In this document: positions 1-37,152 of the stretch, one piece after another
How the letters are laid out: each line of letters begins with the position of its first letter
Numbering within the stretch: position 1 is the stretch's first letter
DNA from: a virus
Lineage: Duplodnaviria; Heunggongvirae; Uroviricota; Caudoviricetes
Virus record (IMG/VR): IMGVR_UViG_2687453623_000006
Strand: one strand, 5' to 3'
DNA length: 39,437 nt
Made by a program: the position numbers and the translations under genes
The notes under the pieces: model-generated
Databases searched by the model: none
Told to the model about the DNA's origin: nothing
Seen by the model: the letters and a program-made list of their open reading frames with translations, nothing else

Positions 1-342
1 CTACGCGACCTTTTTTGCACGCTCTTCACGGCGTGCCAAATATTCAGCCACTGTTTCAATCCGTCCCAATTCTTCCTGGGTACGCATGTTGTTTTCAACT
101 TCCCAAAGATCAACTGCCGCCTGGAGGTTTAGCCAAAAATCGACTGTGGTATCAAAAACTTTCGCCAGACGGAATGCCATCTCAGTGGTGAGTTTACGAT
201 TGTTATTGATCAGTGCACTGACGCTATTACGATGAACATGCAGCAACTCTGCTAACTCATTGATTTTCAAATCGAGCGGTTCCAGATATTCATAGAGAAG
301 AATATCTCCGGGTGTCGTCGGTTTTCTTGTTGCCTGTTTCAT
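1..342 (-). CDS. higA: HigA-family antitoxin (XRE-type HTH)
   Basis: 113-aa ORF with HTH core PGDILLYEYLEPLDLKINELAELLHVHRNSVSALINNNRKLTTEMAFRLAKVFDTTVDFWLNLQ typical of HigA antidotes; 35 bp downstream of a HigB-like ORF on the same strand. Confidence 0.8.
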   Translation of the reverse strand: MKQATRKPTTPGDILLYEYLEPLDLKINELAELLHVHRNSVSALINNNRKLTTEMAFRLAKVFDTTVDFWLNLQAAVDLWEVENNMRTQEELGRIETVAEYLARREERAKKVA

Positions 343-377
343 AGTTTTACCTTTCTCGTCAATACGACAGCTATGTT

Positions 378-680
378 TTAGTAGTTGTGTGGGTCTAAAA
401 ACAATTCTTCGGCCTTGCCATTAACCCATTTAAAAATCAGTCGGTACTGTTTATTCACTCTAATGGAGGAGTATTCCTGTAATTTCCCGGATAACTCTTC
501 GTATCGGTTCCCCGGAGGGGAGCGTAAATCCCGATGAGAAGTGGCAGCATTAATGATGTCCAACTTTCGTGATAACGTGGTATGGATTTCAGCAGGGATC
601 TTTCGATGTGGCGTTGAATGGACAAAAAAATCAGCCAACCAGGCATCACGAAAACTCCTTATATTTTTCTTTTGAGCCAT
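378..680 (-). CDS. higB: HigB-family toxin (RelE/ParE superfamily mRNA interferase)
   Basis: 100-aa ORF; IRSF near N-terminus, SPPGNRYEELSGK and WRxxF-like RLIFKW segment and C-terminal HNY match the HigB killer-protein pattern; toxin-first operon order with higA. Confidence 0.75.
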   Translation of the reverse strand: MAQKKNIRSFRDAWLADFFVHSTPHRKIPAEIHTTLSRKLDIINAATSHRDLRSPPGNRYEELSGKLQEYSSIRVNKQYRLIFKWVNGKAEELFLDPHNY

Positions 681-1069
681 TCCTCTCTCATCTCCTTGTC
701 CATTATTTAATCATTGTAATGCACACAAGCACTGTGCACAAGTGCAACAATCAACTCCATTTGCGCCATCCCTCCCCGCGCGCTAGCATGATATTTCACA
801 AAGGGAGGTCGTATGGATCTGTTGTACCGGGTAAAAACGCTTTGGGCCGCGCTGCGCGGTAATCATTACACCTTGATCAGACATGAGATAAATGAAGGGG
901 GATCCGTGAGATAAATAACGAATTGGAGTGGGTTAACATGGGTTCTGGTGAACAGAACTGAAATTCTTTTCCGCTATACGATAGATAAGTCGGGCATTGA
1001 AATCATCCTTCCTGGCAACTTAGAATCGAGTTTGCTGAAACATGACCCGTAACAAAAAGGATGATTCCA

Positions 1070-1231
1070 ATGACTACTCAAAACAATAAGCATGACAGCC
1101 TGGATTACTCAGAAAAGCCCAAAAGCAAGCACATTGTGACGTTCGAGCGCGATTCCGGTAGAAAAGGAGAATCGTCTTCCTCTGCCAATAAAACCACTAT
1201 GCCGGCAGCTCCTGCTCCAGGGAAAAAATAA
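1070..1231 (+). CDS. hypothetical small hydrophilic protein (53 aa), doubtful
   Basis: ATG at 1070 preceded by AAGGA about 9 nt upstream; below the ORF-track cutoff; stop abuts the stop of a convergent minus-strand gene. Confidence 0.2.
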   Translation: MTTQNNKHDSLDYSEKPKSKHIVTFERDSGRKGESSSSANKTTMPAAPAPGKK

Positions 1232-1234
1232 ACA

Positions 1235-1867
1235 TCATTCATCGTTCGTTGCACGAACGCGCCTGATCTCCACTCTGGCAATCTGATCTGCTGGAATATA
1301 GGTTGCCAGAGCTCCCCAGTACTTATCAACCACGCCTTTATACTCTTCCCATTCGTTACTTCCTGAAGGGCTGCTGTGCGTGACGTAAAGAACCATATCG
1401 CCTTTATTTCCCAGGGTAAACGGACCGTTAGGCCACTCTTCAAAGTTCCCTGGCAGCCGTGACATCATACCGGAACCATCGCGAAGAATCACTCTGACCT
1501 CGGTGACGCTGAAGCCTGTTTGATCAAACATTGCCTGCCATGCTGAGCTGGTATTGTCAGACCATGAAATATCATTATTCCACAGTAATCTGTACATCCA
1601 TTTGCGACCGTACCTGCGCCACCACGCACCGCATGTAACGGCACACAGAAGTGCTGGGGGGGTTGCCAGCCAGGCATTCAGACCTGCCCACATAACAGCC
1701 TGGTAAGCCATCATTGCTGTCAGGCCAAAAATCAGCGAAGAAAAAGTCACCTCAATGGGTTTGTGGTGATCCTTCAGCCCCACATTCGCAATAAAATACC
1801 CAATATAGCCACTGGTCAGGGTCACCAGTGTTGCCCATGGCAGATTTAATAACGAAACGTCAAACAT
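1235..1867 (-). CDS. membrane protein of unknown function (N-terminal transmembrane segments plus soluble C-terminal domain); prophage cargo candidate
   Basis: Long minus ORF (1235..1945); preferred start is the internal ATG at 1867 (MFDVSLL...) with GGGAGAA RBS; hydrophobic stretches LVTLTSGYIGYFIANVGL, FSSLIFGLTAMMAYQAVMWAGL, PALLCAVTCGAWW; same strand and just downstream of mor. Confidence 0.6.
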   Translation of the reverse strand: MFDVSLLNLPWATLVTLTSGYIGYFIANVGLKDHHKPIEVTFSSLIFGLTAMMAYQAVMWAGLNAWLATPPALLCAVTCGAWWRRYGRKWMYRLLWNNDISWSDNTSSAWQAMFDQTGFSVTEVRVILRDGSGMMSRLPGNFEEWPNGPFTLGNKGDMVLYVTHSSPSGSNEWEEYKGVVDKYWGALATYIPADQIARVEIRRVRATNDE

Positions 1868-1981: not shown

Positions 1982-2380
1982 TTATCTGGATTTGTTAACG
2001 TCTTTCGTCTCCTCTGGCAGATCTTCATCAAACAACCTGCCCTGCATCCGATCCAGTTCTTCTTTTCTGACCCGCTTAACCACGCTGTAGACCCACTGAA
2101 GCGAAACACCAAACTTGCGGGCCAGTTCGTGGTGGTTGCGTCCGTTAAACTCCCTGAAGATTTCCCGGTCGCGCTGACTGACCTTCCATACCATGCCCAT
2201 CGGGAAATAAACGTTTTGCCCGCCCCAGACCTGCATCATTCGGTTCGCGACGGCCTGACCAATCTGGTCGGCAATTGCGGGCTCAATATCAATAATCTCG
2301 CGAACGGTCTCAGAGGTATGCTGTGCCAGCTCCACCAGGAGTTCCGGCCCTTTACTTCGAAACTGATTCAGGTCGCTCAT
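1982..2380 (-). CDS. mor: Mor/C-family transcriptional activator
   Basis: 132-aa ORF with C-terminal HTH (HHELARKFGVSLQWVYSVVKRVRKEE) and size typical of Mu Mor; last recognisable early gene. Confidence 0.75.
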   Translation of the reverse strand: MSDLNQFRSKGPELLVELAQHTSETVREIIDIEPAIADQIGQAVANRMMQVWGGQNVYFPMGMVWKVSQRDREIFREFNGRNHHELARKFGVSLQWVYSVVKRVRKEELDRMQGRLFDEDLPEETKDVNKSR

Positions 2381-2804
2381 GTTTGACTCCCGCAGCTCTG
2401 CGCTGCCACTTCTTCAGTTTCTCAATAACACTGCTTGCCTGTTCAGTACTGAGCCAGCGCAGGGCGCTGATGCCCGTTTCCCGCTTGATCCACCGCGCTA
2501 ATGCATTTTCTGAACGGTCACGAACAATGCCGGCAGCAGCCATTTCAAGCCATAGCGCACGGATTTTCCTGGACTGCGGATGGTTATCCAGCGGTAAACC
2601 GGAGCTGGCTTTTCCGGCAGGCTTAACGCGAAAGCCTTTCCTTTTCATGGATTCCAGCACGCAGTTTAGTTGTGTGGTATCCATTCCTTTGGTTGAGGCT
2701 TTACCGGTCAGCCCCTGTAACATCTGGCGGTAGGTGTCTTCATCCATACCCAGTTCATTACGGGCAATATGAATGAGCTGGATAAGACGTTGTTTAGTCA
2801 TCAT
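2352..2804 (-). CDS. gemA: GemA-like protein (Mu gp16 family)
   Basis: ORF 2352..2843; preferred start ATGATG at 2804 with AAGGAG RBS; N-terminal MTKQRLIQLIHIARNELGMDEDTYRQML resembles GemA; lies immediately upstream of mor as in Mu. Confidence 0.6.
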   Translation of the reverse strand: MMTKQRLIQLIHIARNELGMDEDTYRQMLQGLTGKASTKGMDTTQLNCVLESMKRKGFRVKPAGKASSGLPLDNHPQSRKIRALWLEMAAAGIVRDRSENALARWIKRETGISALRWLSTEQASSVIEKLKKWQRRAAGVKHERPESVSK

Positions 2805-3009
2805 CGTTGCTCCTTTTACCTGCGCCACCGATATAATCGACATATAAAGGAAGCGCCACAGGCCAGCACAGGAACATCACCGACCAGCTAATCCAGTAGC
2901 CAGCACCACTGTAACGTGAATAAAACCCTGAACGGCGGTGCAGTTCAGCAGTACACCAACCGACAAAACAATACCAGAACAGGGCACATACAACAGATTC
3001 AGCCGTCAT
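2794..3009 (-). CDS. small hydrophobic protein (about 71 aa), hypothetical
   Basis: Internal start of ORF 2794..3165 (MTAESVVCALFWYCFVGW...) gives a tightly packed small gene with two hydrophobic segments. Confidence 0.3.
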   Translation of the reverse strand: MTAESVVCALFWYCFVGWCTAELHRRSGFYSRYSGAGYWISWSVMFLCWPVALPLYVDYIGGAGKRSNDDD

Positions 3010-3229
3010 TCTGAATATCCCCCCAACTGATATGAATATTACGGGCAGCAATGACAGGGTCGTTATTCCACCATGCACCTGACATGTATTTTTCAACCTG
3101 TTCGCGTCCGGCAATAACACCAATTGTGATCCCCGGCCTGACGTTCTTAAAAAAGGCGCGGGCAAAAAGGTATCTGGCAGATATTCGGCAGGCTTTTAAT
3201 TTCCGGCTTTTACCTGATAGCGTAATCAT
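2999..3229 (-). CDS. hypothetical protein (76 aa)
   Basis: ORF packed between the DUF2786-like gene and the small membrane ORF in the early operon; no recognisable motif. Confidence 0.3.
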   Translation of the reverse strand: MITLSGKSRKLKACRISARYLFARAFFKNVRPGITIGVIAGREQVEKYMSGAWWNNDPVIAARNIHISWGDIQNDG

Positions 3230-3909
3230 CTGGCCTCCAGTTTCTGTTGTTCCTGCCCACTGACCGGGCGGTGCAGTCTGACGTTCTGCCCTTCAAGAAA
3301 CCCCGCATAGCGCGAGGCGTCGCCATTGCGGCTTCTTCCCGGTTTACGCGCCCTGGTGGTTTGCGTCTGCGGGTATTTATGTTCCAGCCACTGCTGCATC
3401 AGTTCACGTTCGTCATCGGTCAGGGCGAAGGACTGTATTTCACTGATAACGGCCAGCACCCAGCCTTCAGCAAACTGGTCACCACGGCTGGTACGGGTGG
3501 CAGTTTTTATTCTTTTGTTCTGTGCGCTGATATATTGCTGACGCGCCTTTTTCAGCTGGCGGGCCAGCACTTCCCAGGTGTACGCAGCCAGTGCAGCCCG
3601 TTCCCGGTTGCCGTAGAACCCCACACCCGGATATGTGCCGGGGTGAATGATGGAGTTAACACCAAATGCCTCGCGGATGATGTTCATCAGGCCCAGCATG
3701 TAGCGCGGTGGACGGAGGCTGCCTGTCGGCCAGTAGTGACTGATGGTTTCATCAATATCACTCATGGCGATGTCGGAATGTGTGATGCCGTGAACATCCA
3801 TCAGTTTACGGGCACGGCGCAGTGCCAGAGCGGCCTCGTGAGGGTTGCCGGATGCGGCCAGCGCCAGCAACTTTTTCAGTTTCTCAATGTGTTTATCCTG
3901 GTCTGTCAT
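3226..3909 (-). CDS. DUF2786-like phage protein
   Basis: 227 aa; N-terminal IEKLKKLLALAASGNPHEAALALRRARKLM is the characteristic DUF2786 motif; start overlaps the upstream stop. Confidence 0.55.
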   Translation of the reverse strand: MTDQDKHIEKLKKLLALAASGNPHEAALALRRARKLMDVHGITHSDIAMSDIDETISHYWPTGSLRPPRYMLGLMNIIREAFGVNSIIHPGTYPGVGFYGNRERAALAAYTWEVLARQLKKARQQYISAQNKRIKTATRTSRGDQFAEGWVLAVISEIQSFALTDDERELMQQWLEHKYPQTQTTRARKPGRSRNGDASRYAGFLEGQNVRLHRPVSGQEQQKLEAR

Positions 3910-4211
3910 TGTTCAGTATCTCCGGTGTACATGACGCCCAGCCGTGCGGCAAGGCGTTCCAGTTTTTTCTGTTTGTGGAAGTCAATCAGCCGGTCCATTC
4001 CCTGAAGGCGCAGCTGCTCTGTCATGATTTCCACGTCTGCCAGCTCTGCCGCGAGGTCACTTTCGCTGCCCTGTCCGTTCAGGTTGCGGGCGGCACTGGC
4101 CGCCAGTTCAGCGGCCTCTTCTGTCAGTTTCAGGGCCTGTGCGTCCGGCCCGAAACGCTGCAGGGCCAGACGGTAGAGGGCGGTGCGGGTGAGTTCGGTG
4201 TTCCGTGTCAT
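3906..4211 (-). CDS. hypothetical protein, possible MazG-like all-alpha NTP pyrophosphohydrolase domain
   Basis: 101 aa; acidic helical motifs LTEEAAELAASAARNL and SDLAAELADVEIMTEQL resemble the EExxE/ExxD metal-binding helices of MazG/HisE-type domains; weak. Confidence 0.4.
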   Translation of the reverse strand: MTRNTELTRTALYRLALQRFGPDAQALKLTEEAAELAASAARNLNGQGSESDLAAELADVEIMTEQLRLQGMDRLIDFHKQKKLERLAARLGVMYTGDTEQ

Positions 4212-4220
4212 GCCGCGCCC

Positions 4221-4493
4221 TCAGTGTTTCCGGTCGACGGTGATGTGCAGGCCGCCTTCTGCAGTGGTTTCCATCCGGTACGGCACCTCATGCTCTGCCG
4301 TGTGGGTGAGTGTGTTCATCAGTACCTGCAGGGCAGCCTCCTTTCCGTTGGTCGCCACAATGGCCTGTGTGGCCATGCTGATTAGCGCCGTCAGGACGTG
4401 CTTCACATCGGTGAGGTCGCGGCATTCACACTCGTTGACATAGTGTTCAACAAGGGTTCGGGTGCGCTGTCGTGCTTCCTGTGGGGTAATCAT
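4221..4493 (-). CDS. hypothetical early protein (90 aa)
   Basis: ORF in the co-directional early gene string; start overlaps the upstream stop (ATGA-type coupling). Confidence 0.4.
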   Translation of the reverse strand: MITPQEARQRTRTLVEHYVNECECRDLTDVKHVLTALISMATQAIVATNGKEAALQVLMNTLTHTAEHEVPYRMETTAEGGLHITVDRKH

Positions 4494-4684
4494 TGCGCGT
4501 CCTCCCTGTCAGGGCGGGAGAATTCCATGACGGGCACGTCCGCCGAAAAATGCTGGCTGCAGTACGGGCAGACCAGGGTGACACGTACTGCAGGTATGTG
4601 ATACTTACCGGACATCACGGCGATGGCGCTGTGAAAACGCAGGGCTGTTATATCCCTCTCGCACTGAATACATTTAAATATCAT
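4490..4684 (-). CDS. small zinc-ribbon-like protein (64 aa)
   Basis: Two Cys pairs, CIQC and CPYC, spaced about 33 residues apart; GAGGAG upstream of the start. Confidence 0.4.
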   Translation of the reverse strand: MIFKCIQCERDITALRFHSAIAVMSGKYHIPAVRVTLVCPYCSQHFSADVPVMEFSRPDREDAQ

Positions 4685-4781
4685 AATTTAATTCTCCTCT
4701 GTTTCCGGCGTGCAGAAGCCCACGGCGCTGACGCCGGAATAAAAAAGAAAATGTTTTTATTAAATAATTAACGTGGTGTGT

Positions 4782-5312
4782 TTACTGCACATCCTGCTCA
4801 AAAGGAATTATTGAAAAATCCTCAATGTCGCTTTTAATGGAAATACCGGGAATATTTTTCACGGCCTCTTTTTCATTCAGAATGGCATCTTTATTTATTT
4901 CCTCCTTTACACGAATAAAGCGCTCAAGCCCCAGACGTCTCAGCAGTTCAATGACATTATCCGCCCCGCGAATGCTGACTGACGGCGGACGGTTTCGCCA
5001 CTGCACCTCGCCGGTGGTGAGGTTAGCGAACTTCACCTTCCCGTTGCCGGTCAGTTCATCACGGTGCGCCTCACACCATGTCTGGATACCGGACTGCAGT
5101 TCGGCCATGCGTTTTTTCAGGCTCTCGGTGAGCGGGGCATAACGTGCAGTGATGTCGCCAATGGTGTCATTCATTTCTGTTTCAGCCCTGACCAGTTCAC
5201 GTTGCGCGTCACCAAGCAGTCTGATTCCCTCAATGACCTCTTCGCGTGTCCCCGGCACCCAGAGTGCTGCTGCGGCTTTGATACGTTTTGCCCCTTTTGT
5301 ACTTTTTGCCAT
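4782..5312 (-). CDS. gam: Gam-like host-nuclease inhibitor (Mu Gam / Ku-like DNA-end binding)
   Basis: 176 aa; MAKSTKGAKRIKAAAA..., ETEMNDTI, WCEAHRDELT, RPPSVSIRG and C-terminal IEDFSIIPFEQ closely match Mu Gam. Confidence 0.8.
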   Translation of the reverse strand: MAKSTKGAKRIKAAAALWVPGTREEVIEGIRLLGDAQRELVRAETEMNDTIGDITARYAPLTESLKKRMAELQSGIQTWCEAHRDELTGNGKVKFANLTTGEVQWRNRPPSVSIRGADNVIELLRRLGLERFIRVKEEINKDAILNEKEAVKNIPGISIKSDIEDFSIIPFEQDVQ

Positions 5313-5339
5313 ATTTTATGACTCCTCCTGTTGTGCTGA

Positions 5340-5609
5340 TTACCACAAAGATTCCGGCCACACGACGCGACAGCCGTGCAGTTCGAAAACGCCCTGACGG
5401 AAATATCCCCTGTGGTCATGTCCGGTATACAGATAACAGGCCTTTCCCTGCTCAAGCATGCGCATGCAATGCGCACTCCGGGAAACGCGGATGACAGGTT
5501 TGTTACCCCTGATGGTGATGCTTTGTACATCCGTGTTCGTCGCCTTAAGCGCCATAATGGCTGACTGCACTTTGCTGATTTGCTGGTTGATACCTGTGGT
5601 GGATTTCAT
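5340..5609 (-). CDS. hypothetical early protein (89 aa) in the position of Mu kil
   Basis: ORF immediately downstream of the B gene on the same strand; no recognisable motif. Confidence 0.35.
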   Translation of the reverse strand: MKSTTGINQQISKVQSAIMALKATNTDVQSITIRGNKPVIRVSRSAHCMRMLEQGKACYLYTGHDHRGYFRQGVFELHGCRVVWPESLW

Positions 5610-5611
5610 TA

Positions 5612-6778
5612 TTAAACCCCTTTGACAACGTCAGCGTTGACCTGTGGAACCCCGATTTCAGCGGCCAGATTCATGGCGGCTATCACCAGGTTACTGACGG
5701 CCAGCGGATACAGCAGGCTGACCATATTTTTACGATGACTTCCCGGATTGCTCAGGCGGGCACGTATGGCATCCACTGCGCTGGCGTCCATAATGTCCGT
5801 CAGTTGTTTACCGGCCCGTTGCAGTTTGAACGTCAGAAATTCTTCAAGGTTATTGTCCAGAGGCAGAAGTTCGACCACCTCACAACGCTGAACGACTTCA
5901 CGGACTTCCATATTGCGTTCAGACAGTTTTGTCGCCAGTTCCGGCTGGCCAATCAGCACGATGGACAGCAGTTTTTTGAAACCGGACTCCAGCTCAAAAA
6001 AGCGTTTGAGGTGTTTCAGTGTCGGAATGGGCAGACTGTGGGCCTCCTCAATCACCAAAACGTGGCTGAACCCCGCCTGGCTGCTGTCTTTCAGGACGCG
6101 ATGCAACTGGCGAAAGCGGGCGTCCTGACTGCGTCTGATGCTTTCCAGTGGTGCGATGGTACTGATAATGGCTTCGGCAATCGCTGCTGCCTTCAGGGTT
6201 TTCCCTTTCACATCGTTGTCTTCCATAGCGATGATGTATGGCTCGATAACAATTACCGGCGCATTCTCGCGGTTGATACGTTCAGTCAGGTCGCGGCGCA
6301 GCGTGGATTTACCCGCACCGGACTCACCGATGACGGCCATAAACCCACCATGACGGGCTGTCTGGTACAACGCCTCACGCACGTAGCGAATGTCCGGGGT
6401 GGTGAACACATCATCAGAACCCTGCATGGCTTCATCGGCGAACGGGTCACGGAAAAGACCAAACGCTTTTTTGGTTGCTGGAAATAACACCTGTTTTTTG
6501 AGTAACATATTCTCTTCCTCACTGAGGCTCGTTTTATCTGTGGTACCCGCTGTACGGGGCGTGGCTGCGCCCTGTACAGCATCAAAACTCTTCGTTGTAT
6601 CAATCCCCTGAGTTTCCAGCCAGGACGCAAGACGCCGGCGCACTTCTCCGGGGCTGGTGCGGGGCCACGCGTTATGATTCACAATCTGGGCCAGCGTGGC
6701 CTCAGAAACATCGACAGCTCTCGCCACCACCGCCTGTGGGATACGGGCCTCTTTCAGTTGCTGCTTCAGTACCAGCAT
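5612..6778 (-). CDS. transposition ATPase B (AAA+ / TniB-like)
   Basis: Walker A GESGAGKST, Walker B-like HVLVIEEAH; preferred ATG at 6778 with GAGGAGG RBS 11 bp after transposase stop (the track ORF extends to a GTG at 6817). Confidence 0.75.
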   Translation of the reverse strand: MLVLKQQLKEARIPQAVVARAVDVSEATLAQIVNHNAWPRTSPGEVRRRLASWLETQGIDTTKSFDAVQGAATPRTAGTTDKTSLSEEENMLLKKQVLFPATKKAFGLFRDPFADEAMQGSDDVFTTPDIRYVREALYQTARHGGFMAVIGESGAGKSTLRRDLTERINRENAPVIVIEPYIIAMEDNDVKGKTLKAAAIAEAIISTIAPLESIRRSQDARFRQLHRVLKDSSQAGFSHVLVIEEAHSLPIPTLKHLKRFFELESGFKKLLSIVLIGQPELATKLSERNMEVREVVQRCEVVELLPLDNNLEEFLTFKLQRAGKQLTDIMDASAVDAIRARLSNPGSHRKNMVSLLYPLAVSNLVIAAMNLAAEIGVPQVNADVVKGV

Positions 6779-6788
6779 GTTTTCCTCC

Positions 6789-8558
6789 TCAGTTGCCGTT
6801 AACAATGCTGATAACACTGCTGCGTGCCGGCGTGGTCAGCGTGGCCATGACTTCATCCAGTGCAGCTTCCGGTACGCCGTCCGGGTACTGTGCCGTTAAC
6901 TGGCGGTAATGTTCCGGCGTCCAGGTAAGGCCGTCGGCGCTGAACTTATCGCGCAGGGCTTTCGCGGCCTCCACATGAGTCATGGGACGTTGTTCAGTGC
7001 GCGGCCCGCGTACGTCAGAGGCCTGACCACGCTTCGGCATATAGGCCGGAAGTGTGGTGTCGTCGATATGTTTATACGGGTCAAGCCGCCCGCCGAACGG
7101 CAGCGCCTTCGCCTTGCGTGCGGCAGCTGCATCTGCGGCGTTGTCTGTACCGGTGACCAGCGCTTCGGTTTCTTTTGCCGCCATCTGCGCCGGGGTTTCC
7201 GGCAGGGCTTTGTAACTTTCGCCAAATACCGCCGCGCCTTCAGCAAAGCCAAACTCGTTCTTTCTGACCTCTTCGACCAGGAAGAACGTCTCGTGGCCGT
7301 CCTCACCGGTCAGAACCACCTGTGCCACATCGCTGCGCCACGGGTTACGGGTAATCATCAGTTTTTCACCAACCAGTACGCCCGGTACCGTTGATACGTC
7401 AAATTCAGTGCCCCGGAACGAGACACGAAGTTTTGGCGTGACTTTGCGGAGTTCTGGTGCCGCCACAGCCAGTTCACGACATACCTCAACGGAAGGCGCT
7501 TTTTTCAGCTGCTCAGCAGTAATCTTCAGCCAGATATCCGTGCGGGTTTTACCGTGGCGGCTGTGAACAGCCGTGGCGTTAAAGTGGCTGCGCCATTTCG
7601 CGGCCAGCGCGTTGAGTTCTTCCAGACTGTGAACCGGCCGGAACTTCAGACCCGGCTCCAGCTTGCGTTCGATAATGTCCCGCGCCTTTTCCACCTGTCC
7701 GGTGGCGCGGGCGTTATGCGGCTTGTGCGCTATCAGGTCGATGCCCAGTGAGCGGCACATGTTTTTCGTCATACCCGCGGTGTTTGCCGAGCCGGGGTCG
7801 AGATAGAGTATTTTCGGCACACCGTGCAGCACGTCTGCGCCGCCACGCTCCTGCATGGCGTTGATAAGCACAGAACACAGGTTCTCACCTGATTCCGCGC
7901 CCGTCACATACTCAACGTAAATCCAGCCGCTGGCATGGTCGGTAATCTCGTAACTCCACACGCGGTCACTGGCGATACGGGCAAGGTTAGCGGGCTTGTT
8001 CTTGTAGAACTTCGCGCTGTCCATCACCTGCAGCCCTTTATGTCCATTGCTCAGGTAGTAAAGCGTGCAGAGTGAGGCGTCAATCTGCCAGACATGATTG
8101 GGATGCAGACTGGCCACTTCGGTATGCGGCGCAGGGGCATCCAGTTGTTCCGGGTGCAGGCCATAGTTACGCAGGGCTCGGCTGATGGCATCTTCGGACA
8201 ACGGGAAAAACTCACCGGTGGTTTCATCTGTTCTGCCTGCGGATATAAAGCCGTTAGCCCGCAGGGTTTCCACTGCATCCGCGATGGAATAGAGACGCTT
8301 ACCGTTCTTGCGGGTGGCCTCACGCAGTGTGGCAGATATCAGCGCGGCTTCGTCGCGGGTCAGGGCGCTGCGCCCGGCATCGGCGCGTTTTTTGCGTTTA
8401 TCAGTCACAGATACCTCCTTCAGCCTGCGCAGCAGAGTGGCGCGGGACATGCCAAGTTCAGCACAGGCAGCGTCGTATACTGCGCCGCGTTTACCATGCC
8501 CCGCGTCACGTGCCGCGCGGGCGACATAAACCAGTCGTTCAGTCAGGGCAGCATTCAT
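6789..8558 (-). CDS. DDE transposase (Mu A functional equivalent, integrase-core type)
   Basis: 589 aa; N-terminal DNA-binding region followed by catalytic-core-like segments HVWQIDAS and ILYLDPGSANT; immediately upstream of the AAA+ B gene. Confidence 0.8.
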   Translation of the reverse strand: MNAALTERLVYVARAARDAGHGKRGAVYDAACAELGMSRATLLRRLKEVSVTDKRKKRADAGRSALTRDEAALISATLREATRKNGKRLYSIADAVETLRANGFISAGRTDETTGEFFPLSEDAISRALRNYGLHPEQLDAPAPHTEVASLHPNHVWQIDASLCTLYYLSNGHKGLQVMDSAKFYKNKPANLARIASDRVWSYEITDHASGWIYVEYVTGAESGENLCSVLINAMQERGGADVLHGVPKILYLDPGSANTAGMTKNMCRSLGIDLIAHKPHNARATGQVEKARDIIERKLEPGLKFRPVHSLEELNALAAKWRSHFNATAVHSRHGKTRTDIWLKITAEQLKKAPSVEVCRELAVAAPELRKVTPKLRVSFRGTEFDVSTVPGVLVGEKLMITRNPWRSDVAQVVLTGEDGHETFFLVEEVRKNEFGFAEGAAVFGESYKALPETPAQMAAKETEALVTGTDNAADAAAARKAKALPFGGRLDPYKHIDDTTLPAYMPKRGQASDVRGPRTEQRPMTHVEAAKALRDKFSADGLTWTPEHYRQLTAQYPDGVPEAALDEVMATLTTPARSSVISIVNGN

Positions 8559-8561
8559 TGG

Positions 8562-9473
8562 TTATGCCTCCAGCCCGTTAATCTGTGGCGTCGGCTCAGT
8601 CAGCCATGAAGGCGCTGCATTGCCTGTTGGCTCGTCCGGCAGGTCAAATGTGGAGCGCAGGCTACGCGCTGTGCTTTCCAGTTGACAGACCAGGCCTGCC
8701 ATGAAGTCTCTGGGGGTATCAATCATGTTTTCAGCACAATATGCGCACAGCGTCTCAAAAGCGCTGGACAGTCGAACGGCGATGGCAGATTCCGCCTCAA
8801 CCGCTAACGCGGTCACTTCTGCCCGCAGTTTCTTCACCTCTTCATCAGGCTCAGGTGGCTGAATACGGGATTTCTTCTCCAGTCTGGTGGAGAGTGAGTC
8901 TATTTTTTCATTTTTGTCGGCGAGTACGCGCTGTTGTGCTGCGTTGGTTTCGCGCGCTTCGCGCAGGGCCTGACGCAATTCACGTACTGACATGCGATCA
9001 ACATCGTCAAGCGTCAGTCCGGCAACTGTGCCACCGTCGGCCAGTTCAGCAAGGTCGTCGTCATCTTCAGCAACAAGTTCAAATAATTTTGCCTTACCTA
9101 AAAGCGACAACGTTGTCGCTTTTGGCTCTAGTTTTGGTGAAAGGTATTTCAAAGATGCTTTCATCATTCGTTGTGCTGCGCGCACATGCAGACCAAGTTG
9201 TTCTTCTACAATTCCAACAAAGTCCCCGTGAGGTTCATTTTCTTTGAGAATAATAAGTCGTTTACCTGCTTCCAGCATGGCCTCAGCGCTCTGTGCCATA
9301 TAAAACCGAGCCTCATGAACTATGCGATCACGCTCATAGGGCTGACCATCGCCAAACTGCTGCATGATCTCCATACGATGCTGTGTCATGGCGTTCAGAC
9401 TGACATTGAGATCATCCGACAGCGGTACCTCGGCGTTCAGTTCAGTGTTAATCGGTGATTTGGTGCGTCCCAT
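8562..9473 (-). CDS. DUF3102-like phage protein with acidic/coiled-coil C-terminal half
   Basis: 303 aa; EARFYMAQSAEAMLEAGKRLIILKENEPHGDFVGIVEEQLGLHVRAAQRMMKAS resembles the DUF3102 core (HGxF/W ... AQRxM); directly upstream of transposase. Confidence 0.45.
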   Translation of the reverse strand: MGRTKSPINTELNAEVPLSDDLNVSLNAMTQHRMEIMQQFGDGQPYERDRIVHEARFYMAQSAEAMLEAGKRLIILKENEPHGDFVGIVEEQLGLHVRAAQRMMKASLKYLSPKLEPKATTLSLLGKAKLFELVAEDDDDLAELADGGTVAGLTLDDVDRMSVRELRQALREARETNAAQQRVLADKNEKIDSLSTRLEKKSRIQPPEPDEEVKKLRAEVTALAVEAESAIAVRLSSAFETLCAYCAENMIDTPRDFMAGLVCQLESTARSLRSTFDLPDEPTGNAAPSWLTEPTPQINGLEA

Positions 9474-9483
9474 TTATTACTCC

Positions 9484-9798
9484 TTACAAACGACTACCTG
9501 AAATGACACGTTGGTTGATTTCGTTAATGCGATCCTGTGCACGTGCCATCTCGTTACTGTGGGCCATAGCGATCTGCAGTAACTGGATGCCCGGCGCGAA
9601 ACGCCCGTTTTCCAGTTTCAGGGCCAACCCTTCTTCAATGAGGGTGTTGAGTGCCCGGTTGATGTTTGCCGGTGACTCGTGCAGTGCTGCCGCCAGTTCA
9701 CCGTTGGAAATACCGTTCAGGGCATGACCGCGCAGCGCTTTGAGTACCCGGAGGATGCGACTGCCGGAGCTTGAAACATTCGTCTTACTCATCTGCAT
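9484..9798 (-). CDS. winged-helix DNA-binding protein
   Basis: 104 aa; RILRVLKALRGHALNGISNGELAAALHESPANINRALNTLIEEGLA resembles an IclR/MarR-type N-terminal wHTH. Confidence 0.45.
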   Translation of the reverse strand: MQMSKTNVSSSGSRILRVLKALRGHALNGISNGELAAALHESPANINRALNTLIEEGLALKLENGRFAPGIQLLQIAMAHSNEMARAQDRINEINQRVISGSRL

Positions 9799-9844
9799 AC
9801 CTCTTTTGCGATATGTGATAACCTTTTACAAAGACTCAAAATCT

Positions 9845-10033
9845 TCAGGCTGCCTGAGCTGTTGATTTCAGCCCCAACTTCACGGCGATTTCATGGGATT
9901 TACCGTAACGGGCTTTGGTCTGCCCATTGAGAACGCGGTATACCTCATTGCGGTTGTAGCCGTTTTCTTCTGCCCAGCGGGTGAAAGTGATCCCGCGCTG
10001 GCGGAAGAGAGCTTTGACTTGTTCTGCAGTCAT
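9845..10033 (-). CDS. ner: Ner-like small DNA-binding regulator (Cro functional analogue)
   Basis: 62 aa; first gene of the leftward early operon, divergent from the repressor; ATG at 10033 with AAGGAG RBS; HTH-like GITFTRWAEENGYNRNEVYRVLNG. Confidence 0.55.
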   Translation of the reverse strand: MTAEQVKALFRQRGITFTRWAEENGYNRNEVYRVLNGQTKARYGKSHEIAVKLGLKSTAQAA

Positions 10034-10133
10034 CGTTGTCTCCTTTGTTGATGCAATGATGTTTGCCTTATGTGTGATAGATTATGGTGCAGATTACCTC
10101 ACCAGTCAACTTAAAGAGTGCAGAAAAACTCAC
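10034..10133. promoter_or_regulatory. divergent early/repressor promoter-operator region
   Basis: 100-bp AT-rich spacer between divergent ner-like and repressor starts; position equivalent to the Mu Pe/Pc operator region; individual sites not resolved. Confidence 0.4.
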
Positions 10134-10472
10134 ATGATCGGGTTACGTATTAAAGAAGAAAGAGAGCGTCTATCTCTTACACAGCAAGGGTTGGCTGATG
10201 CTATAGGTGTGGCAAAGAGAACTTTCATTGATTGGGAAAAAGATCGCACTTCTCCTACTGCAGTGCAGTTATCTGCACTATCAGAAATCGGTGTAGATAT
10301 TTTGTATGTAGTTACTGGGGTGCGGAGTCAGCCTGTTGTTGCACCTTATGTGTCACAAGAAAAGAAAGAGTTAATGGATGCATTCGACGAAATGAGCCCC
10401 GAACAACGGAGGGCAATTCTTGAGGTCGGCAAAGTCTTCATTCAACCCAAACCAAGCAAACTCGCAGGCTGA
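10134..10472 (+). CDS. XRE-family HTH repressor (lysogeny repressor candidate)
   Basis: Track ORF 9981..10472; HTH domain begins at the internal ATG 10134 (MIGLRIKEERERLSLTQQGLADAIGVAKRTFIDWEKDRTSPT); divergent from the early operon. Confidence 0.65.
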   Translation: MIGLRIKEERERLSLTQQGLADAIGVAKRTFIDWEKDRTSPTAVQLSALSEIGVDILYVVTGVRSQPVVAPYVSQEKKELMDAFDEMSPEQRRAILEVGKVFIQPKPSKLAG

Positions 10473-10557: not shown

Positions 10558-10590
10558 ACCGGAAAGCATTGTGCTTTCCGGTTTTGTTTC
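10558..10590 (+). terminator. Rho-independent terminator downstream of the repressor
   Basis: Perfect 11-bp stem ACCGGAAAGCA/TGCTTTCCGGT with 3-nt loop followed by TTTTGTTTC. Confidence 0.5.
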
Positions 10591-11353
10591 AGAAGTTGCA
10601 GATTACCAGTTCACGGCGCGGCGTAGATTTCCCCGCCAGACTGTAGTTGATGTTCACTGTCTGTATGTTCAGTCCAGTGAACACCTCGCGCATCTGTGGG
10701 ATATCGTTCACCGAAATTATCATTTTTCCTCTGATGCACCGGGCCAGCTCTGCCAGCCGCGAGTAGTTCCCTTCAGGAAAATCCACACCATAGCCTTCCG
10801 TACCCAGGTACGGTGGGTCGCAGTAGAACAGTGTGTGCGGACGATCATAACGCTCAATGCACTGTTGCCAGTCCATGTGTTCTATGACTGTTCTGGAAAG
10901 CCGCAGGTGTGCTGCTGACAGTTCTTCTTCAATACGCAGCAGGTTGAAGCGTGGCGGGGATGTGGTGGAGGTACCGAAGCTGTGCTCTGCCACCTTGCCG
11001 CCAAACGCCTGCTTCTGAAGGTAGTAGAACCGTGCCGCACGCTGGATATCCGTCAGTGTTTCTTCCGGGGTGATCTGCAGCCATTTGTAGATCTGACGGC
11101 TGACCAGCGCCCATTTGAACTGGCGGACAAATTCTTCCAGGTGATGCTTTACCACCCGGTACAGATTCACCAGTTCACCGTTGATATCATTGATGACTTC
11201 GATCTTGCCGGGTGTCTTAAGAAAATAGAGCGCTGCTGCCCCACAAAACGGCTCCACATAACATTCATGCGCCGGAAACAGCGGCAGGATGTGTTTTGCC
11301 AGGCGACGTTTGCCACCAATCCATGGAACGATGGGTAATGTCTTCATTTTCAT
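10589..11353 (-). CDS. dam: Dam-family DNA N6-adenine methyltransferase (orphan)
   Basis: 254 aa; N-terminal WIGGKRRL, SAM-binding motif EPFCGAAALYF, catalytic motif DPPY; no adjacent restriction endonuclease. Confidence 0.8.
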   Translation of the reverse strand: MKMKTLPIVPWIGGKRRLAKHILPLFPAHECYVEPFCGAAALYFLKTPGKIEVINDINGELVNLYRVVKHHLEEFVRQFKWALVSRQIYKWLQITPEETLTDIQRAARFYYLQKQAFGGKVAEHSFGTSTTSPPRFNLLRIEEELSAAHLRLSRTVIEHMDWQQCIERYDRPHTLFYCDPPYLGTEGYGVDFPEGNYSRLAELARCIRGKMIISVNDIPQMREVFTGLNIQTVNINYSLAGKSTPRRELVICNF

Positions 11354-11544
11354 AATCTGTAAGCCTTTTACAATTATTAAAAATATGGCAGGCTAGTCTG
11401 GTCTCGCGAGACTGACTGAACCTCGGTCGGCTCACAGCCACTTCTGTGGGACGATGGCCAGCCCGGTGGGTCCGAAGCACCGGGCTGGTCGTTCTTTCAT
11501 GATGCGGCAGGGATAGTGGGATTTCTGTTAATGTGGTTTAGGGA

Positions 11545-11760
11545 TTATCCGGGGCGATTTTCTGACCTTATCCGGTCCAGGGCATAAGTAATACCTTCTG
11601 CAAAAACAGAAGTATCAAACTGCTTTTGTATTCCCTGAAAATGAAAAGCGGCACGACAGACACTCAGTTCTCCGCGATGTAACCGGATAATATCTTCCAG
11701 AACATTGTTCACTGCTTCAGCACGGCGCTGATGTTCTGTTAACGTTAATCGGGGATTCAT
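11545..11760 (-). CDS. hypothetical protein (71 aa)
   Basis: ATG at 11760 preceded by AAGGAG at good spacing; no recognisable motif. Confidence 0.4.
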   Translation of the reverse strand: MNPRLTLTEHQRRAEAVNNVLEDIIRLHRGELSVCRAAFHFQGIQKQFDTSVFAEGITYALDRIRSENRPG

Positions 11761-12163
11761 GATGCACTCCTTAAATGATGATTTTTATGCACTCACCGGC
11801 AAAATATTCTGCCGATTACTGAACACGCATCCGGCACCTCAGGTTTTGATTTATTCTGGTTTTTTCGATATCCCGGACCAGGTTGATCACGACCAGAAAA
11901 AGTGCCGGTATTTTATTGATACGCTGATATGGCTTCGGGATAACAGCTATATTCGTTACTCTCAGTTGCTGGCTGTGGGAGCGGCTGATGTCGTCCTCAC
12001 GGAAAAAACGCTCCGTCTGCTCAATGCCACGCCGACCCTTCTGCAGCCCCGGCCCGCACCATTTAAAGAGTCACTTCTGGATGCAGTAAAAACCGGTGAA
12101 AATGCAGTCATCGCTGAATGCGTATCCCGGATTATGCGTTACGTGTTTAATGAACGTAAGTGA
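11759..12163 (+). CDS. hypothetical protein (134 aa)
   Basis: Start codon overlaps the start of the divergent 71-aa ORF; GGGGA upstream; 3' end overlaps the convergent P-loop gene by 25 bp. Confidence 0.3.
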   Translation: MMHSLNDDFYALTGKIFCRLLNTHPAPQVLIYSGFFDIPDQVDHDQKKCRYFIDTLIWLRDNSYIRYSQLLAVGAADVVLTEKTLRLLNATPTLLQPRPAPFKESLLDAVKTGENAVIAECVSRIMRYVFNERK

Positions 12164-12882
12164 GGTTTATCCGCTGTCTGCATAATCCCGATAGCCAGTG
12201 CGAGGGGAAGTAATTCCGGGGAAACTCTTTCAAACAGCGACTCCCATTCTCCTCTCGCCATCACTCTGTCCAGCCCGCCCCCCAGTTGCATTTCAGCAAT
12301 CTTCCTGATTTCCCGGAACAACGCCGCTTTGATCTCTTCGTGCTCAGCTTTATTTTCCGGTGTCAGAATGTATTCGTCGAAGAACCGGGGAGGCTGGTTA
12401 ACGGGGAGCGTGTTCACCGGGATGTGTTCCTGTTTCCCGTACTTCGGGGCAGAAAAACATTCTGTTGGCTGACCGGTGAGTTTACGTAGCTCCTTCATGA
12501 GCAGCTCCTGATCGTAAACTGTCATCAGTGCCGCAATGGTGGCATGCAGTGCATCGGGCAGTATCCAGGGTTGCCGGCCCGTGGGGCATATAACATCCAG
12601 CAGCTCATTCGTCCGACAGATACGCTCCTCGCCGTATGACAACAGGCCCTGTCCCGTGTATTCCTCCAGCCTGATCACTGTGCCACCCCGTGGCTTCTGC
12701 CAGGTCGTCAGATCATCGCCACTCATACGCCGCTCATCATCTACGTCTGCAGCATCGACAATGACGCTGCCCCCGAATTCCTGTTTCACCACTTCCTCTA
12801 TCCGCGCCAATATGTAACTTTTACCGCTGCCCACAGGACCGGACACGGTGACAGTGATGACCGGATTCAGTGTCTGCGTCAT
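12139..12882 (-). CDS. P-loop NTPase of unknown function
   Basis: 247 aa; Walker A GPVGSGKS at residues 15-22, candidate Walker B VIVDAADVDDE; GAGGAG RBS; transcribed divergently from the late operon. Confidence 0.55.
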   Translation of the reverse strand: MTQTLNPVITVTVSGPVGSGKSYILARIEEVVKQEFGGSVIVDAADVDDERRMSGDDLTTWQKPRGGTVIRLEEYTGQGLLSYGEERICRTNELLDVICPTGRQPWILPDALHATIAALMTVYDQELLMKELRKLTGQPTECFSAPKYGKQEHIPVNTLPVNQPPRFFDEYILTPENKAEHEEIKAALFREIRKIAEMQLGGGLDRVMARGEWESLFERVSPELLPLALAIGIMQTADKPHLRSLNT

Positions 12883-13363: not shown

Positions 13364-13365
13364 TC

Positions 13366-14103: not shown

Positions 14104-14131
14104 GTTACGGTCGCTGCCGTGGCGGGTCATT

Positions 14132-15377: not shown

Positions 15378-15379
15378 TT

Positions 15380-19740: not shown

Positions 19741-19742
19741 CA

Positions 19743-21531: not shown

Positions 21532-21545
21532 TTTAAGGAGAGAGC

Positions 21546-22499: not shown

Positions 22500-22508
22500 G
22501 GAGGCGTT

Positions 22509-22847: not shown

Positions 22848-22848
22848 C

Positions 22849-25948: not shown

Positions 25949-25950
25949 CG

Positions 25951-37146: not shown

Positions 37147-37152
37147 TACCGT

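Follow-up and report, generated by a model that had tools for sequence, protein, structure and literature searches.

Positions 1982–10472 of the DNA analyzed here (a stretch of 39,437 nucleotides, hereafter the window) are, with a probability of roughly 95%, the early arm of a BcepMu-type transposable myovirus prophage in the Escherichia coli chromosome, carrying the genes for regulation, transposition and replication. The finding is correct but ordinary and holds nothing new in kind: both the split layout and the non-Mu transposition proteins have been published before. BcepMu is described as having its genes in two divergent clusters and a transposase without relationship to MuA (PMC2771037), B3-like phages as having an inverted early operon and differing transposition proteins (PMC5977238), and BcepMu-type prophages as having TG...CA ends and an rve core (PMC2628397). 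The original prediction spoke of a less-studied lineage, which is fair for the biochemistry; the genome layout, however, is textbook knowledge for the group (PMC2771037; PMC5977238).

Prophage Extent and Termini

The prophage of which the early arm is part starts at position 874. This single transposable element of ~38.6 kb continues to the window end and is nearly complete within the window; positions 1–873 are E. coli host DNA, and the right end, read in L003 and L004, lies ~78 bp past the window end. The left junction was placed by comparing flanks across three genomes. The left end, attL (874..940, +), begins with TG; within it, the 10-nt sequence TGAGATAAAT occurs twice (884–893 and 907–916), and both copies are presumed to be transposase-binding sites. 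The termini read TGATCAG... on the left and ...GCGCATCA on the right, i.e., TG...CA, and each bears paired 10-nt repeats with a spacing of 23 bp; in a gap-free alignment of both ends with those of BcepMu and B3, the TGA and two boxes are conserved at fixed spacing. No copies of the end-repeat motif GMGATAAAT were found inside the prophage. The sequence ACACCT at 868..873 is the presumed left copy of a 6-bp target-site duplication whose right copy lies outside the window; duplications of 6 bp surround the same prophage at two independent insertions, ACAAAT in EC11 and GCCTGA in KK19-02. At least 80% of the window's first 12 kb was found in 110 of 5426 complete E. coli genomes, and the prophage occupies differing loci in the E. 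coli records examined; insertion has taken place at many chromosomal positions.

The insertion site of the present copy is absent among the 5426 complete genomes, as might be the case for a defective, domesticated remnant that has lost transposition and particle formation. Such a remnant is nonetheless unlikely: the expected genes are all intact and full length relative to BcepMu, identical copies reside at different loci in recent clinical isolates, and a 94.8%-identical relative, PhiKM, is on record as a phage, albeit with a partial genome.

Organization of the Early Arm

Minus-strand ORFs run unbroken from mor to a 62-aa helix-turn-helix (HTH) gene (1982..10033), in agreement with the RefSeq annotation of identical prophages, and the late genes run rightward from 13013 to 37146, so that the predicted opposition of leftward early and rightward late genes is borne out. 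Relative to Mu, the entire early operon is inverted as a block, and therefore the repressor adjoins the late arm and mor adjoins attL. Between attL and mor lies a cargo block (1070..1867) of orf53 (1070..1231, +) and orf210 (1235..1867, −; phrog_12870, E 1.9e-133), for which searches of Pfam, PADLOC, BcepMu and Mu returned no matches. The final gene of the leftward operon, mor (1982..2380, −), encodes a Mor/C-family transcription activator (Pfam Mor, E 1.1e-43; 56% identity to BcepMu gp1 and 31% to Mu Mor) that presumably activates the rightward late operons. It is preceded by a homologue of GemA (Mu gp16; 2352..2801, −; Pfam GemA, E 1.3e-40; 45% identity to BcepMu gp2 and 36% to Mu GemA) and by six early genes (2794..4684, −) without matches to BcepMu or Mu, which the ORF list, RefSeq and Pfam resolve into a DUF2786/DUF7168 protein (3226..3909) and five small ORFs. 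The host-nuclease inhibitor Gam (4782..5312, −; Pfam Phage_Mu_Gam, E 1.9e-40) is 61% identical to Mu Gam, and no counterpart was found in BcepMu; next to it, downstream of the B-like ATPase gene, is the small gene orf89 (5340..5609, −; phrog_2041, E 3.1e-36). On the other side of the transposition genes, a DUF3102 protein (8562..9473, −) equivalent to BcepMu gp10 and B3 ORF13 (phrog_1748, E 1.9e-140; 44% identity to gp10; Pfam DUF3102 at 24.2 bits, slightly below the 24.4 cut-off) is encoded directly upstream of the transposase gene, always its place and also that in B3, and is followed by a winged-helix regulator equivalent to BcepMu gp12 (9484..9798, −; Pfam HTH_IclR, E 3.1e-6; phrog_1368; 33% identity).

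The first gene of the operon (9845..10033, −) encodes the 62-aa HTH protein, a member of the BcepMu gp16 family (NCBIfam TIGR04111 BcepMu_gp16, 97.4 bits; cut-off, 34). It occupies the position of Ner in Mu and reaches the Ner-family model Pfam HTH_35 only at a sub-threshold E of 0.003; the name "Ner-like" given to it originally thus fits its position more than its sequence, whereas the XRE assignment of the facing gene holds. That gene (10134..10472, +) encodes an XRE/cI-type repressor equivalent to BcepMu gp17 (Pfam HTH_3, E 1.6e-7; 36% identity), for which RefSeq gives a longer form starting at ~10014. The intergenic gap between the two genes (10034..10133) forms a divergent control region of 100 bp; divergence and gap are as had been proposed, but the switch is not central, lying ~24% along the prophage. 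By consensus match only, the gap holds a leftward σ70-like promoter candidate (TTGACT-17-CATAAT, 10109 to 10081) flanked by a 16-nt direct repeat (10087–10102 and 10118–10133) that is a candidate operator; in the promoter scan, the site count of the scanned region was not above shuffled-sequence expectation.

Transposase and ATPase

The 589-aa transposase (6789..8558, −), of the length first reported, is a DDE enzyme of the rve type, rve being its only Pfam match. It is 68% identical to BcepMu gp9 over 581 residues and ~57% identical to the transposase of phage B3; BLASTP finds no similarity to MuA, and the Pfam domains of MuA (DDE_2, HTH_Tnp_Mu_1, HTH_Tnp_Mu_2, and Mu-transpos_C) are absent. 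Both proteins fall in the remote-homology PHROG 310. The catalytic triad D160, D254, and E290, in which 35 residues separate D254 from E290, is invariant across 20 homologues and lines up with the catalytic motifs of retroviral integrases. The closest non-phage relatives belong to the IS481 family (NCBIfam IS481, E 1.4e-18 over residues 25–333, at 67 bits against a family cut-off of 224 bits; ~26% identity by tblastn). The AlphaFold model is poor (mean pLDDT 57; catalytic core below 50), and its fold matches to TnsB, IstA, and integrases (TM-score at most 0.37) indicate the general class only.

The 388-aa B-like transposition ATPase (5612..6778, −; Pfam AAA_22, E 3.8e-20; phrog_296) starts at ATG 6778, where its homologues all begin and where a Shine-Dalgarno sequence (GAGGAGGA) overlaps the transposase stop codon; the 401-aa form from GTG 6817 is a mechanical ORF, disfavored by this Shine-Dalgarno and by the homologue starts. 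The protein is 59% identical to BcepMu gp8 over its full length. BLASTP finds no similarity to MuB, the C-terminal Pfam domain of MuB (Phage-MuB_C) is absent, and both proteins belong to the remote-homology family phrog_296. The original description of the transposition module as non-canonical is therefore upheld for both proteins. An N-terminal HTH-like helical domain (approximately residues 1–60; pLDDT 79–86), conserved across the family alignment, precedes a variable linker and an AAA_22 core of the ExeA type, in which the Walker A motif reads GESGAGKST and the Walker B motif VLVIEEAH. The N-terminal extension that had been claimed exists relative to ExeA-type cores, but MuB aligns over the same region in a weak full-length hhalign match. 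The closest non-phage relatives are ExeA-type proteins (~25% identity over residues 106–325), and the NCBIfam PEP-CTERM ATPase model is matched with an E of 8.8e-19 (68 bits; cut-off, 324 bits); with IS481-family and ExeA/PEP-CTERM-type proteins nearest outside phages, the sequences give no support to the TnsB/TniB-type alternative. This AlphaFold model is also poor (mean pLDDT 63.5; catalytic core below 50), and matches to Cdc6/ORC/RFC (TM-score at most 0.37) again define the general class only. By analogy with Mu, the ATPase may capture and deliver the target DNA as MuB does.

Late Arm and Identity of the Prophage

An accessory block of 2.4 kb and mixed orientation (10589..12882) separates the repressor from the late arm; it contains a Dam-type N6-adenine methyltransferase (10589..11353, −; Pfam MethyltransfD12; PADLOC MTase_II, E 5.9e-113), orf71 (−), orf134 (+), and the P-loop orf247 (−), and has no matches to BcepMu or Mu. 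The late arm (13013..37146, +) gives colinear tblastn matches of 30–76% identity to BcepMu genes 21–52 and, with its RefSeq annotation, encodes a holin, an SLT lysin (Pfam Holin_2-3 and SLT), a spanin-like gene, terminase, portal, Mu F and G homologues, protease, and capsid, then a P2-type sheath, tube, tape measure, baseplate, and tail fibre. An invertible tail-fibre segment (37153..39437) follows, with an assembly gene in reverse orientation, two alternative C-terminal cassettes, inverted repeats of 226–229 nt, and a Gin-type serine invertase (38865..39437, +; Pfam Resolvase and HTH_7; 76% identical to Mu Gin). The Mu-type Gam, the Gin-type tail-fibre inversion system, and a tail-fibre repeat of 300 nt count as minor extras.

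The early arm of phage B3 has the same gene order, including the DUF3102 gene and the divergent repressor, and its transposase is similar enough that a B3-type (Beetrevirus-like) transposable siphovirus prophage might be considered. This is very unlikely: the BcepMu transposase is the closer one, RefSeq names tail sheath-type and baseplate genes, and the entire late arm matches the P2-type contractile tail genes of BcepMu (sheath 76%, tube 67%, and homologues of baseplate V, W, J, and I). A true Mu relative (Muvirus), with an early region inverted by assembly or orientation error or by a recent inversion, would suit the E. coli host and several Mu homologues (Gam, Gin, TerL at 49%, F at 48%, Mor, and GemA), but this reading is refuted: transposase and ATPase match BcepMu gp9 and gp8 rather than MuA and MuB, whose Pfam domains are absent; no pairwise similarity to Mu A, B, Ner, or repressor was detected; the gene matches follow BcepMu; and the target duplication is 6 bp, compared with 5 bp for Mu. 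An artefact is likewise rejected, with the same layout in 110 complete E. coli genomes and in the independently sequenced PhiKM, KP12, BcepMu, and B3. A further reading, in which an independent IS481/Tn-like transposon with an ATPase makes up the early arm and stands by chance beside an unrelated P2-like prophage, draws on the IS481-family relatives and the P2-like tail genes but is scarcely credible, given matching inverted termini that enclose all 38.6 kb, one 6-bp duplication around the unit at two sites, joint movement of the whole unit among genomes, end-repeat motifs confined to the ends, and a gene combination kept from Burkholderia to E. coli.

Proposed Mechanism

For the BcepMu-type prophage, a cycle can be proposed largely by analogy with Mu. 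In the lysogen, the XRE repressor would silence the leftward promoter of the early genes within the 100-bp switch. Induction would yield a single leftward transcript encoding the gp16 regulator at the Ner position, the winged-helix protein, the DUF3102 protein, and the rve-type DD35E transposase and, in its later part, the HTH-AAA+ (ExeA-type) target-capture ATPase, Gam, the small early proteins, GemA and, lastly, Mor. The transposase is predicted to bind two repeats per end, nick at the terminal CA, and join the ends with a 6-bp stagger to a target that the ATPase would capture and deliver; repeated transposition, probably replicative rather than conservative, would amplify the genome. Mor would then activate the rightward late operons, which provide for lysis, headful packaging and head formation of the Mu type, and the P2-type contractile tail.

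Comparison with Known Systems

Backward-facing early genes with a non-Mu transposase pair of the BcepMu/B3 type were reportedly described in 2004; the reference for BcepMu is Summer et al. (2004, J Mol Biol 340:49) and that for B3 is Braid et al. (2004). The annotations of both phages share the order mor, gemA, ..., B, A, DUF3102, regulator, HTH gene, and divergent repressor, then holin and lysin. BcepMu (NC_005882; Burkholderia; relatives include the SalMu, PhotoMu, and ChromoMu prophages) has, as here, a bottom-strand early cluster, a top-strand late cluster, and a control region at their interface. Of the 54 prophage genes tested, 38 match BcepMu with order and strands kept, and this genome-wide, same-strand synteny confirms the originally proposed BcepMu/SalMu-type group; Mu matches are limited to Mor, GemA, Gam, TerL, portal, F, G, baseplate J, a short tail-fibre segment, and Gin. 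Common to BcepMu and the E. coli prophage are the orthologous transposase and ExeA-type ATPase, the DUF3102 protein, the gp12 and gp16 regulators, the XRE repressor, the holin/SLT lysis cassette, Mu-type terminase, portal and head genes, the P2-type tail, and TG...CA ends with paired repeats. Unlike BcepMu, the E. coli prophage carries a Mu-type Gam, the Dam methylase block, other small early genes, and a Gin-type tail-fibre inversion system, of which BcepMu has none (PMC2771037), and it lacks BcepMu gp3–7, gp18–20, and the gp53 acyltransferase.

Escherichia phage PhiKM (PQ738613) and Klebsiella phage KP12 (OM835952) have the same gene order, with 94.8 and 85.8% nucleotide identity, respectively, over the shared part. 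The PhiKM record is partial, covers only 63% of the first 20 kb, and differs at the tail-fibre end and in some accessory genes. PhiKM is filed in GenBank under Bcepmuvirus; since megablast gave no nucleotide match to BcepMu, membership in the same genus by nucleotide-identity criteria is nevertheless doubtful. Pseudomonas phage B3 (Beetrevirus) shares the inverted early operon and the left-end design. It differs in being a siphovirus; the tail genes of the present late arm are those of a P2-type contractile tail.

Mu is likewise transposable, with random insertion, TG...CA ends, and homologous Mor, GemA, Gam, TerL, portal, F, G, and Gin, and MuB and the ATPase share the order of N-terminal HTH and AAA+ core. 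Mu has three sites per end compared with the two repeats seen here, and its early genes are colinear with the late genes rather than opposite to them. The best non-phage sequence relatives are IS481-family (rve, DD35E) transposases and ExeA/GspA or PEP-CTERM-associated AAA_22 ATPases; relative to these, the phage transposase has an extra C-terminal region and the phage ATPase an extra N-terminal HTH, and the two phage proteins, unlike those relatives, presumably work as a pair inside a 38-kb element.

Relationship to BcepMu

The original prediction likened the split layout to the BcepMu/SalMu-type group of transposable phages, and this reading proved accurate: the element's transposase (A) and ATPase (B) are orthologous to those of BcepMu, a transposable phage of Burkholderia, and 38 of the 54 prophage genes tested match BcepMu in a gene-by-gene tblastn comparison, with order and strands kept and protein identities of 30–76%. 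Matches in the early arm comprise Mor, GemA, B, A, the DUF3102 protein, a winged-helix regulator, the gp16-family HTH protein and the repressor; those in the late arm comprise the holin, SLT lysin, small and large terminase subunits, portal, F, G, protease and capsid, together with the tail sheath (76%), tail tube (67%), tape measure, baseplate and N-terminus of the tail fiber. The Mu-type terminase, portal and head genes and the P2-type contractile tail cassette are both present, and all are colinear with BcepMu. Matches to Mu (tblastn) are limited to Mor, GemA, Gam (61%), TerL (49%, versus 62% to BcepMu), portal, F, G, baseplate J, a short fiber segment and Gin (76%). Among the traits that define BcepMu-like phages, the layout, the orthologous A/B pair, the termini, the varied insertion sites, and the Mu-type head with a P2-type tail are all found here. 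A further trait of the group is virion DNA with random host sequence at its two ends, a mark of replicative transposition and headful packaging.

Membership in the genus Bcepmuvirus is a separate matter. ICTV practice sets the genus criterion at ~70% nucleotide identity. High nucleotide identity to the type species was not found (protein identities are 30–76%), and because megablast of the first 20 kb of the window returns no match to BcepMu, strict membership by nucleotide identity to that phage appears doubtful; the related phage PhiKM is filed under Bcepmuvirus in GenBank.

Extent and Layout of the Prophage

The ORF map of the window has three parts: a short left flank, a minus-strand run and a long plus-strand run. 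The flank carries a HigB/HigA-like toxin-antitoxin pair (RelE/ParE-family toxin and HTH antitoxin; 1..680), and megablast identifies positions 1..873 as ordinary chromosome, present in 5424 of 5426 complete E. coli genomes and adjoining ybaP. From 864–874 onward the sequence is an accessory element, with at least 80% coverage in 110 complete E. coli genomes. In the records examined the prophage occupies varied chromosomal positions. The same accessory, varied-position behavior is seen for the right third of the window as for the left part; insertion at the window's own site, beside the higBA-like pair, is absent from all 5426 complete E. coli genomes searched. The window stops where a serine invertase gene ends, at its stop codon. 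Since the element runs 78 bases past this point in two other genomes, ending ...GCGCGGCGCATCA, the window contains an almost complete prophage of ~38.6 kb (874 to about 39515 in window numbering).

Minus-strand genes run unbroken from 1235 to 10033 and plus-strand genes from 13013 to 37146. The early arm extends leftward from a 62-aa HTH gene (9845..10033), its first gene, to mor (1982..2380) at its far end, and contains the 589-aa transposase ORF described in the original prediction (6789..8558, minus strand). Across a 100-bp gap (10034..10133) lies the rightward XRE-type repressor gene (10134..10472). The minus-strand genes at 1982..10033, the switch at 10034..10133, and the plus-strand repressor and late arm reproduce the layout of BcepMu-like phages, which have two divergent clusters, with the early genes, including the transposase, on the bottom strand, lysis and morphogenesis genes on the top strand, and lysogeny control at the interface (PMC2771037). 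Every described feature of an early arm opposite in strand to the late arm is in place, with two corrections: the switch, described as central, stands roughly one quarter along the prophage, and the repressor does diverge from the early genes as proposed but is parted from the lysis genes by a 2.4-kb block of mixed orientation (10589..12882). The layout is no artifact of assembly or orientation; it recurs in 110 finished genomes, in the related phage records PhiKM (94.8% nucleotide identity) and KP12 (85.8%), in BcepMu, and in the Pseudomonas transposable siphovirus B3.

The first early gene belongs to the NCBIfam 'BcepMu_gp16 family' (TIGR04111; 97 bits against a cut-off of 34) and gives only a below-threshold match to Ner's Pfam family; its earlier description as Ner-like therefore suits its position better than its sequence.

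Prophage Ends and Target Duplication

The left end lies at 874 and reads TGATCAGACATGAGATAAATG..., as shown by comparing the junctions in the window with those of the same prophage at other sites in E. coli strains EC11 and KK19-02. The target duplication is 6 bp, since ACAAAT flanks the prophage in EC11 and GCCTGA in KK19-02; the presumed left copy in the window is ACACCT at 868–873. The left end carries a 10-nt repeat, TGAGATAAAT, at 884 and 907, 23 bp apart, and the right end carries two 10-nt repeats with the same 23-bp spacing, the complement of GCGATAAATG. Aligned without gaps, the two prophage ends, the two BcepMu ends and the left end of B3 share TGA at positions 1–3 and have both boxes in register, and the motif GMGATAAAT occurs nowhere else in the window. 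TG...CA termini with presumed transposase-binding repeats, varied insertion sites and a target duplication (here 6 bp, at two sites) are BcepMu-like features, and the ends agree with the TG...CA termini and rve core reported for BcepMu-type prophages (PMC2628397).

The Transposase

Comparison with MuA, called for in the original prediction, identifies the transposase as an rve-type protein orthologous to BcepMu gp9 (68% identical over 581 residues) and not MuA-like. BLASTP against MuA returns nothing, and a family profile aligned to the single MuA sequence with hhalign gives no signal (probability 0.2%). The only Pfam domain is the rve integrase core; a control search on MuA detects DDE_2, HTH_Tnp_Mu_1, HTH_Tnp_Mu_2 and Mu-transpos_C, none of which is found in the prophage proteins at E ≤ 0.01. 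Residues D160 (WQIDAS), D254 (YLDPGSANT) and E290 (GQVEKA) are invariant in 20 transposase homologs and line up with the catalytic motifs WQGD, D-x-G and G-x-V-E in the HTLV-1 and foamy-virus integrases, so the predicted catalytic triad is D, D-35-E. The last two catalytic residues of MuA, D336 and E392, are 55 residues apart.

The nearest non-phage relatives are IS481-family transposases (NCBIfam E 1.4e-18, 67.5 bits, residues 25–333), and those encoded on plasmids are ~26% identical (tblastn); this agrees with placement in a 'Tn552-IS1604' rve family (PMC2771037). Membership in IS481 proper takes more than 224 bits (the NCBIfam equivalog cut-off) and a single-gene insertion sequence of about 1 kb; a score of 67.5 bits in a 38.6-kb phage dismisses the reading of the element as an IS481 insertion sequence.

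The ATPase

The ATPase is 388 and not 401 aa long: it starts at the ATG at 6778, preceded by GAGGAGGA, and all homologs start at that methionine. This Shine-Dalgarno sequence overlaps the transposase stop codon, and the A and B genes are adjacent. Across the full length it shares 59% identity with its ortholog BcepMu gp8, and an ExeA-type AAA ATPase encoded directly downstream of the transposase gene is itself a BcepMu-like feature. Its four-helix N-terminal domain (residues 1–60) is modeled confidently (pLDDT 79–86), with a Pfam HTH_3 match in some homologs, and is followed by a variable linker, a conserved FGLFRDPF segment and an AAA core (Walker A, GESGAGKST; Walker B, VLVIEEAH). The nearest non-phage relatives are ExeA/GspA-type and PEP-CTERM-associated ATPases.

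Pfam finds only AAA_22/AAA_16 in the ATPase, and a control search on MuB returns Phage-MuB_C and AAA_22, of which only AAA_22 is common to both. BLASTP against MuB returns nothing, and the ATPase family profile gives a weak full-length hhalign match to the single MuB sequence (E 0.012, probability 3.7%) that pairs HTH with HTH, Walker A with Walker A and Walker B with Walker B.

Nature and Origin of the Transposition Module

By sequence, the pair is not of the TnsB/TniB type, since neither Mu-transpos_C nor TniB (PF05621) is detected at E ≤ 0.01. In Foldseek searches TnsB and IstA rank first, at TM-scores ≤0.22 and with a low-confidence transposase model, a ranking that carries no information; across both proteins TM-scores are ≤0.37 and indicate only 'DDE/integrase-like' and 'AAA+ initiator/clamp-loader-like' folds. 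The AlphaFold2 models are poor (mean pLDDT 57 for the transposase and 63.5 for the ATPase, with catalytic cores <50), and their input alignments of 19–20 close homologs are too shallow, since all those listed are ≥64% identical. Single-sequence and profile searches of PDB chains give, for both proteins, only weak retroviral-integrase core and generic P-loop matches, which do not separate MuA, TnsB and IstA. In a spread sample of plasmid tblastn matches outside the close phage-type homologs, those with annotation are IS481-family or generic DDE transposases or ExeA-type ATPases.

The transposase shares phrog_310 with MuA, and the ATPase shares phrog_296 with MuB; this common membership suggests, only indirectly, a remote homology. 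Given the weak hhalign match and the shared PHROGs, the module is best described as a very distant analog of MuA/MuB with different accessory domains, and possibly a remote homolog.

The pair joins an IS481-like DD35E transposase to an AAA+ ATPase of the HTH-ExeA type, and a DUF3102 protein is always found with them. The DUF3102 gene (8562–9473) lies directly upstream of the transposase gene, as it does in BcepMu (gp10) and B3 (ORF13), and its product is a conserved third component of the module. A broader reading, that the BcepMu/B3-type pair transposes replicatively by rules unlike those of MuA/MuB and that the E. coli lineage is a recent mosaic on a BcepMu backbone, is offered tentatively, at roughly three chances in ten. 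Possible differences in the rules are two sites per end, a 6-bp stagger, the lack of a Mu-type enhancer domain and a required third protein; if they are real, they would point to a DDE/AAA+ pair that a phage recruited separately, and not to divergence from MuA/MuB. No biochemical study of the BcepMu/B3-type module was found in the literature, so the form that is widespread in enterobacteria could offer a tractable model, in E. coli, to set against MuA/MuB.

Mosaic Additions and Tail-Fiber Variation

The Gam gene (4782–5312), which lacks a BcepMu counterpart, shows 61% identity to Mu Gam; positions 4978–5078 match gam of the Pseudomonas B3-like phage H72 at 84% nucleotide identity, a pattern that points to mosaic exchange between transposable phages. 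The mixed-orientation block between the repressor and the lysis cassette (10589–12882) encodes a Dam-type N6-adenine methyltransferase (minus strand), a 71-aa ORF, a 134-aa ORF (plus strand) and a 247-aa P-loop protein (GPVGSGKS), none of which matches BcepMu or Mu; PADLOC finds no defense system among the accessory genes besides the methyltransferase. Between the left end and mor (1070–1867), in a moron-like position at the prophage edge, lie a 53-aa ORF (plus strand) and a 210-aa predicted membrane protein (minus strand, phrog_12870), both without known domains or a PADLOC match.

Directly before the tape-measure gene, ORFs 26330..26665 and 26490..26747 overlap in the place where a programmed-frameshift tail-chaperone pair usually lies; BcepMu gp42/gp43 are annotated as such a pair. 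Within the tail-fiber gene (34954..37146), a 300-nt (100-aa) unit is repeated 3.7 times in tandem at 35182–36305 (98% matches), and because the gene measures 1593 nt in EC11, 1893 nt in KK19-02 and ~2193 nt in the window, the fiber shaft differs among strains by single-repeat steps.

A Gin-type fiber inversion system with more than one alternative cassette occupies 36663–39437. Inverted repeats of 226–229 nt pair 36665–36890 with both 38576–38801 and 38059–38287; the system also includes an assembly gene (37153..37767) and two C-terminal cassettes (37767..38249 and 38290..38793), all in reverse orientation. Homology among the three cassettes starts at the motif ACNTTGGTTT. The invertase is 76% identical to Mu Gin. 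The 26-nt Mu gix site is absent from the window at up to three mismatches, in a search checked against Mu, and the inversion sites of the prophage are different. BcepMu has no inversion system (PMC2771037). The E. coli lineage looks like a recent mosaic in which a Mu-type Gam and a three-cassette Gin inversion system were added to a BcepMu backbone.

Distribution and Significance

The family is very large: its homologs number at least 2359 for the transposase and at least 5000 for the ATPase, and one 90%-identity cluster holds 5173 sequences. Its genera include Escherichia, Salmonella, Klebsiella, Enterobacter, Serratia, Yersinia, Dickeya, Pectobacterium, Photorhabdus, Burkholderia and Pseudomonas. 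RefSeq annotates identical prophages in many E. coli genomes, and Bcepmuvirus prophages are routinely reported in this species, including ST131 (bioRxiv 10.1101/2022.05.07.487787). The layout and the non-Mu transposase/ATPase pair are already known: their descriptions for BcepMu and B3 date from 2004, and recognized phage genera are now defined by them. Of mild interest are the mosaic additions, that is, the Mu-type Gam, the Gin-type multi-cassette inversion and the 300-nt fiber repeat with its copy-number variation. The practical value lies in correct annotation. The region is a mobile, probably active prophage that inserts at random, can disrupt genes at any landing site and is common among clinical E. 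coli, ST131 included.

Proposed Mode of Action and Comparison with Mu and B3

The mode of action proposed here draws on analogy with Mu and on gene order. The XRE repressor would hold the leftward early promoter off; a candidate promoter known from consensus matches only (TTGACT-17-CATAAT, 10109 to 10081) is bracketed by a 16-nt direct repeat, and a promoter/terminator scan of the switch region gives no excess of sites over shuffled sequences. Derepression would yield a single leftward transcript ending with Mor. The transposase, on the paired end repeats, and the ATPase, on target DNA, would then drive round after round of replicative transposition, with a stagger of 6 bp, while Gam shields DNA ends; Mor would next switch on the rightward lysis, head and tail operons, and the Mu-type terminase would package integrated copies by the headful.

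B3 has its early arm in common with this prophage but not its tail. Of the features that distinguish Mu (MuA/MuB domains, a colinear early operon and a 5-bp duplication), the prophage has none: its target duplication is 6 bp, whereas that of Mu is 5 bp, and the whole early operon is flipped relative to Mu. In Mu the early operon is colinear with the late genes and the repressor adjoins attL; here the early operon is inverted, and it is mor that adjoins attL.
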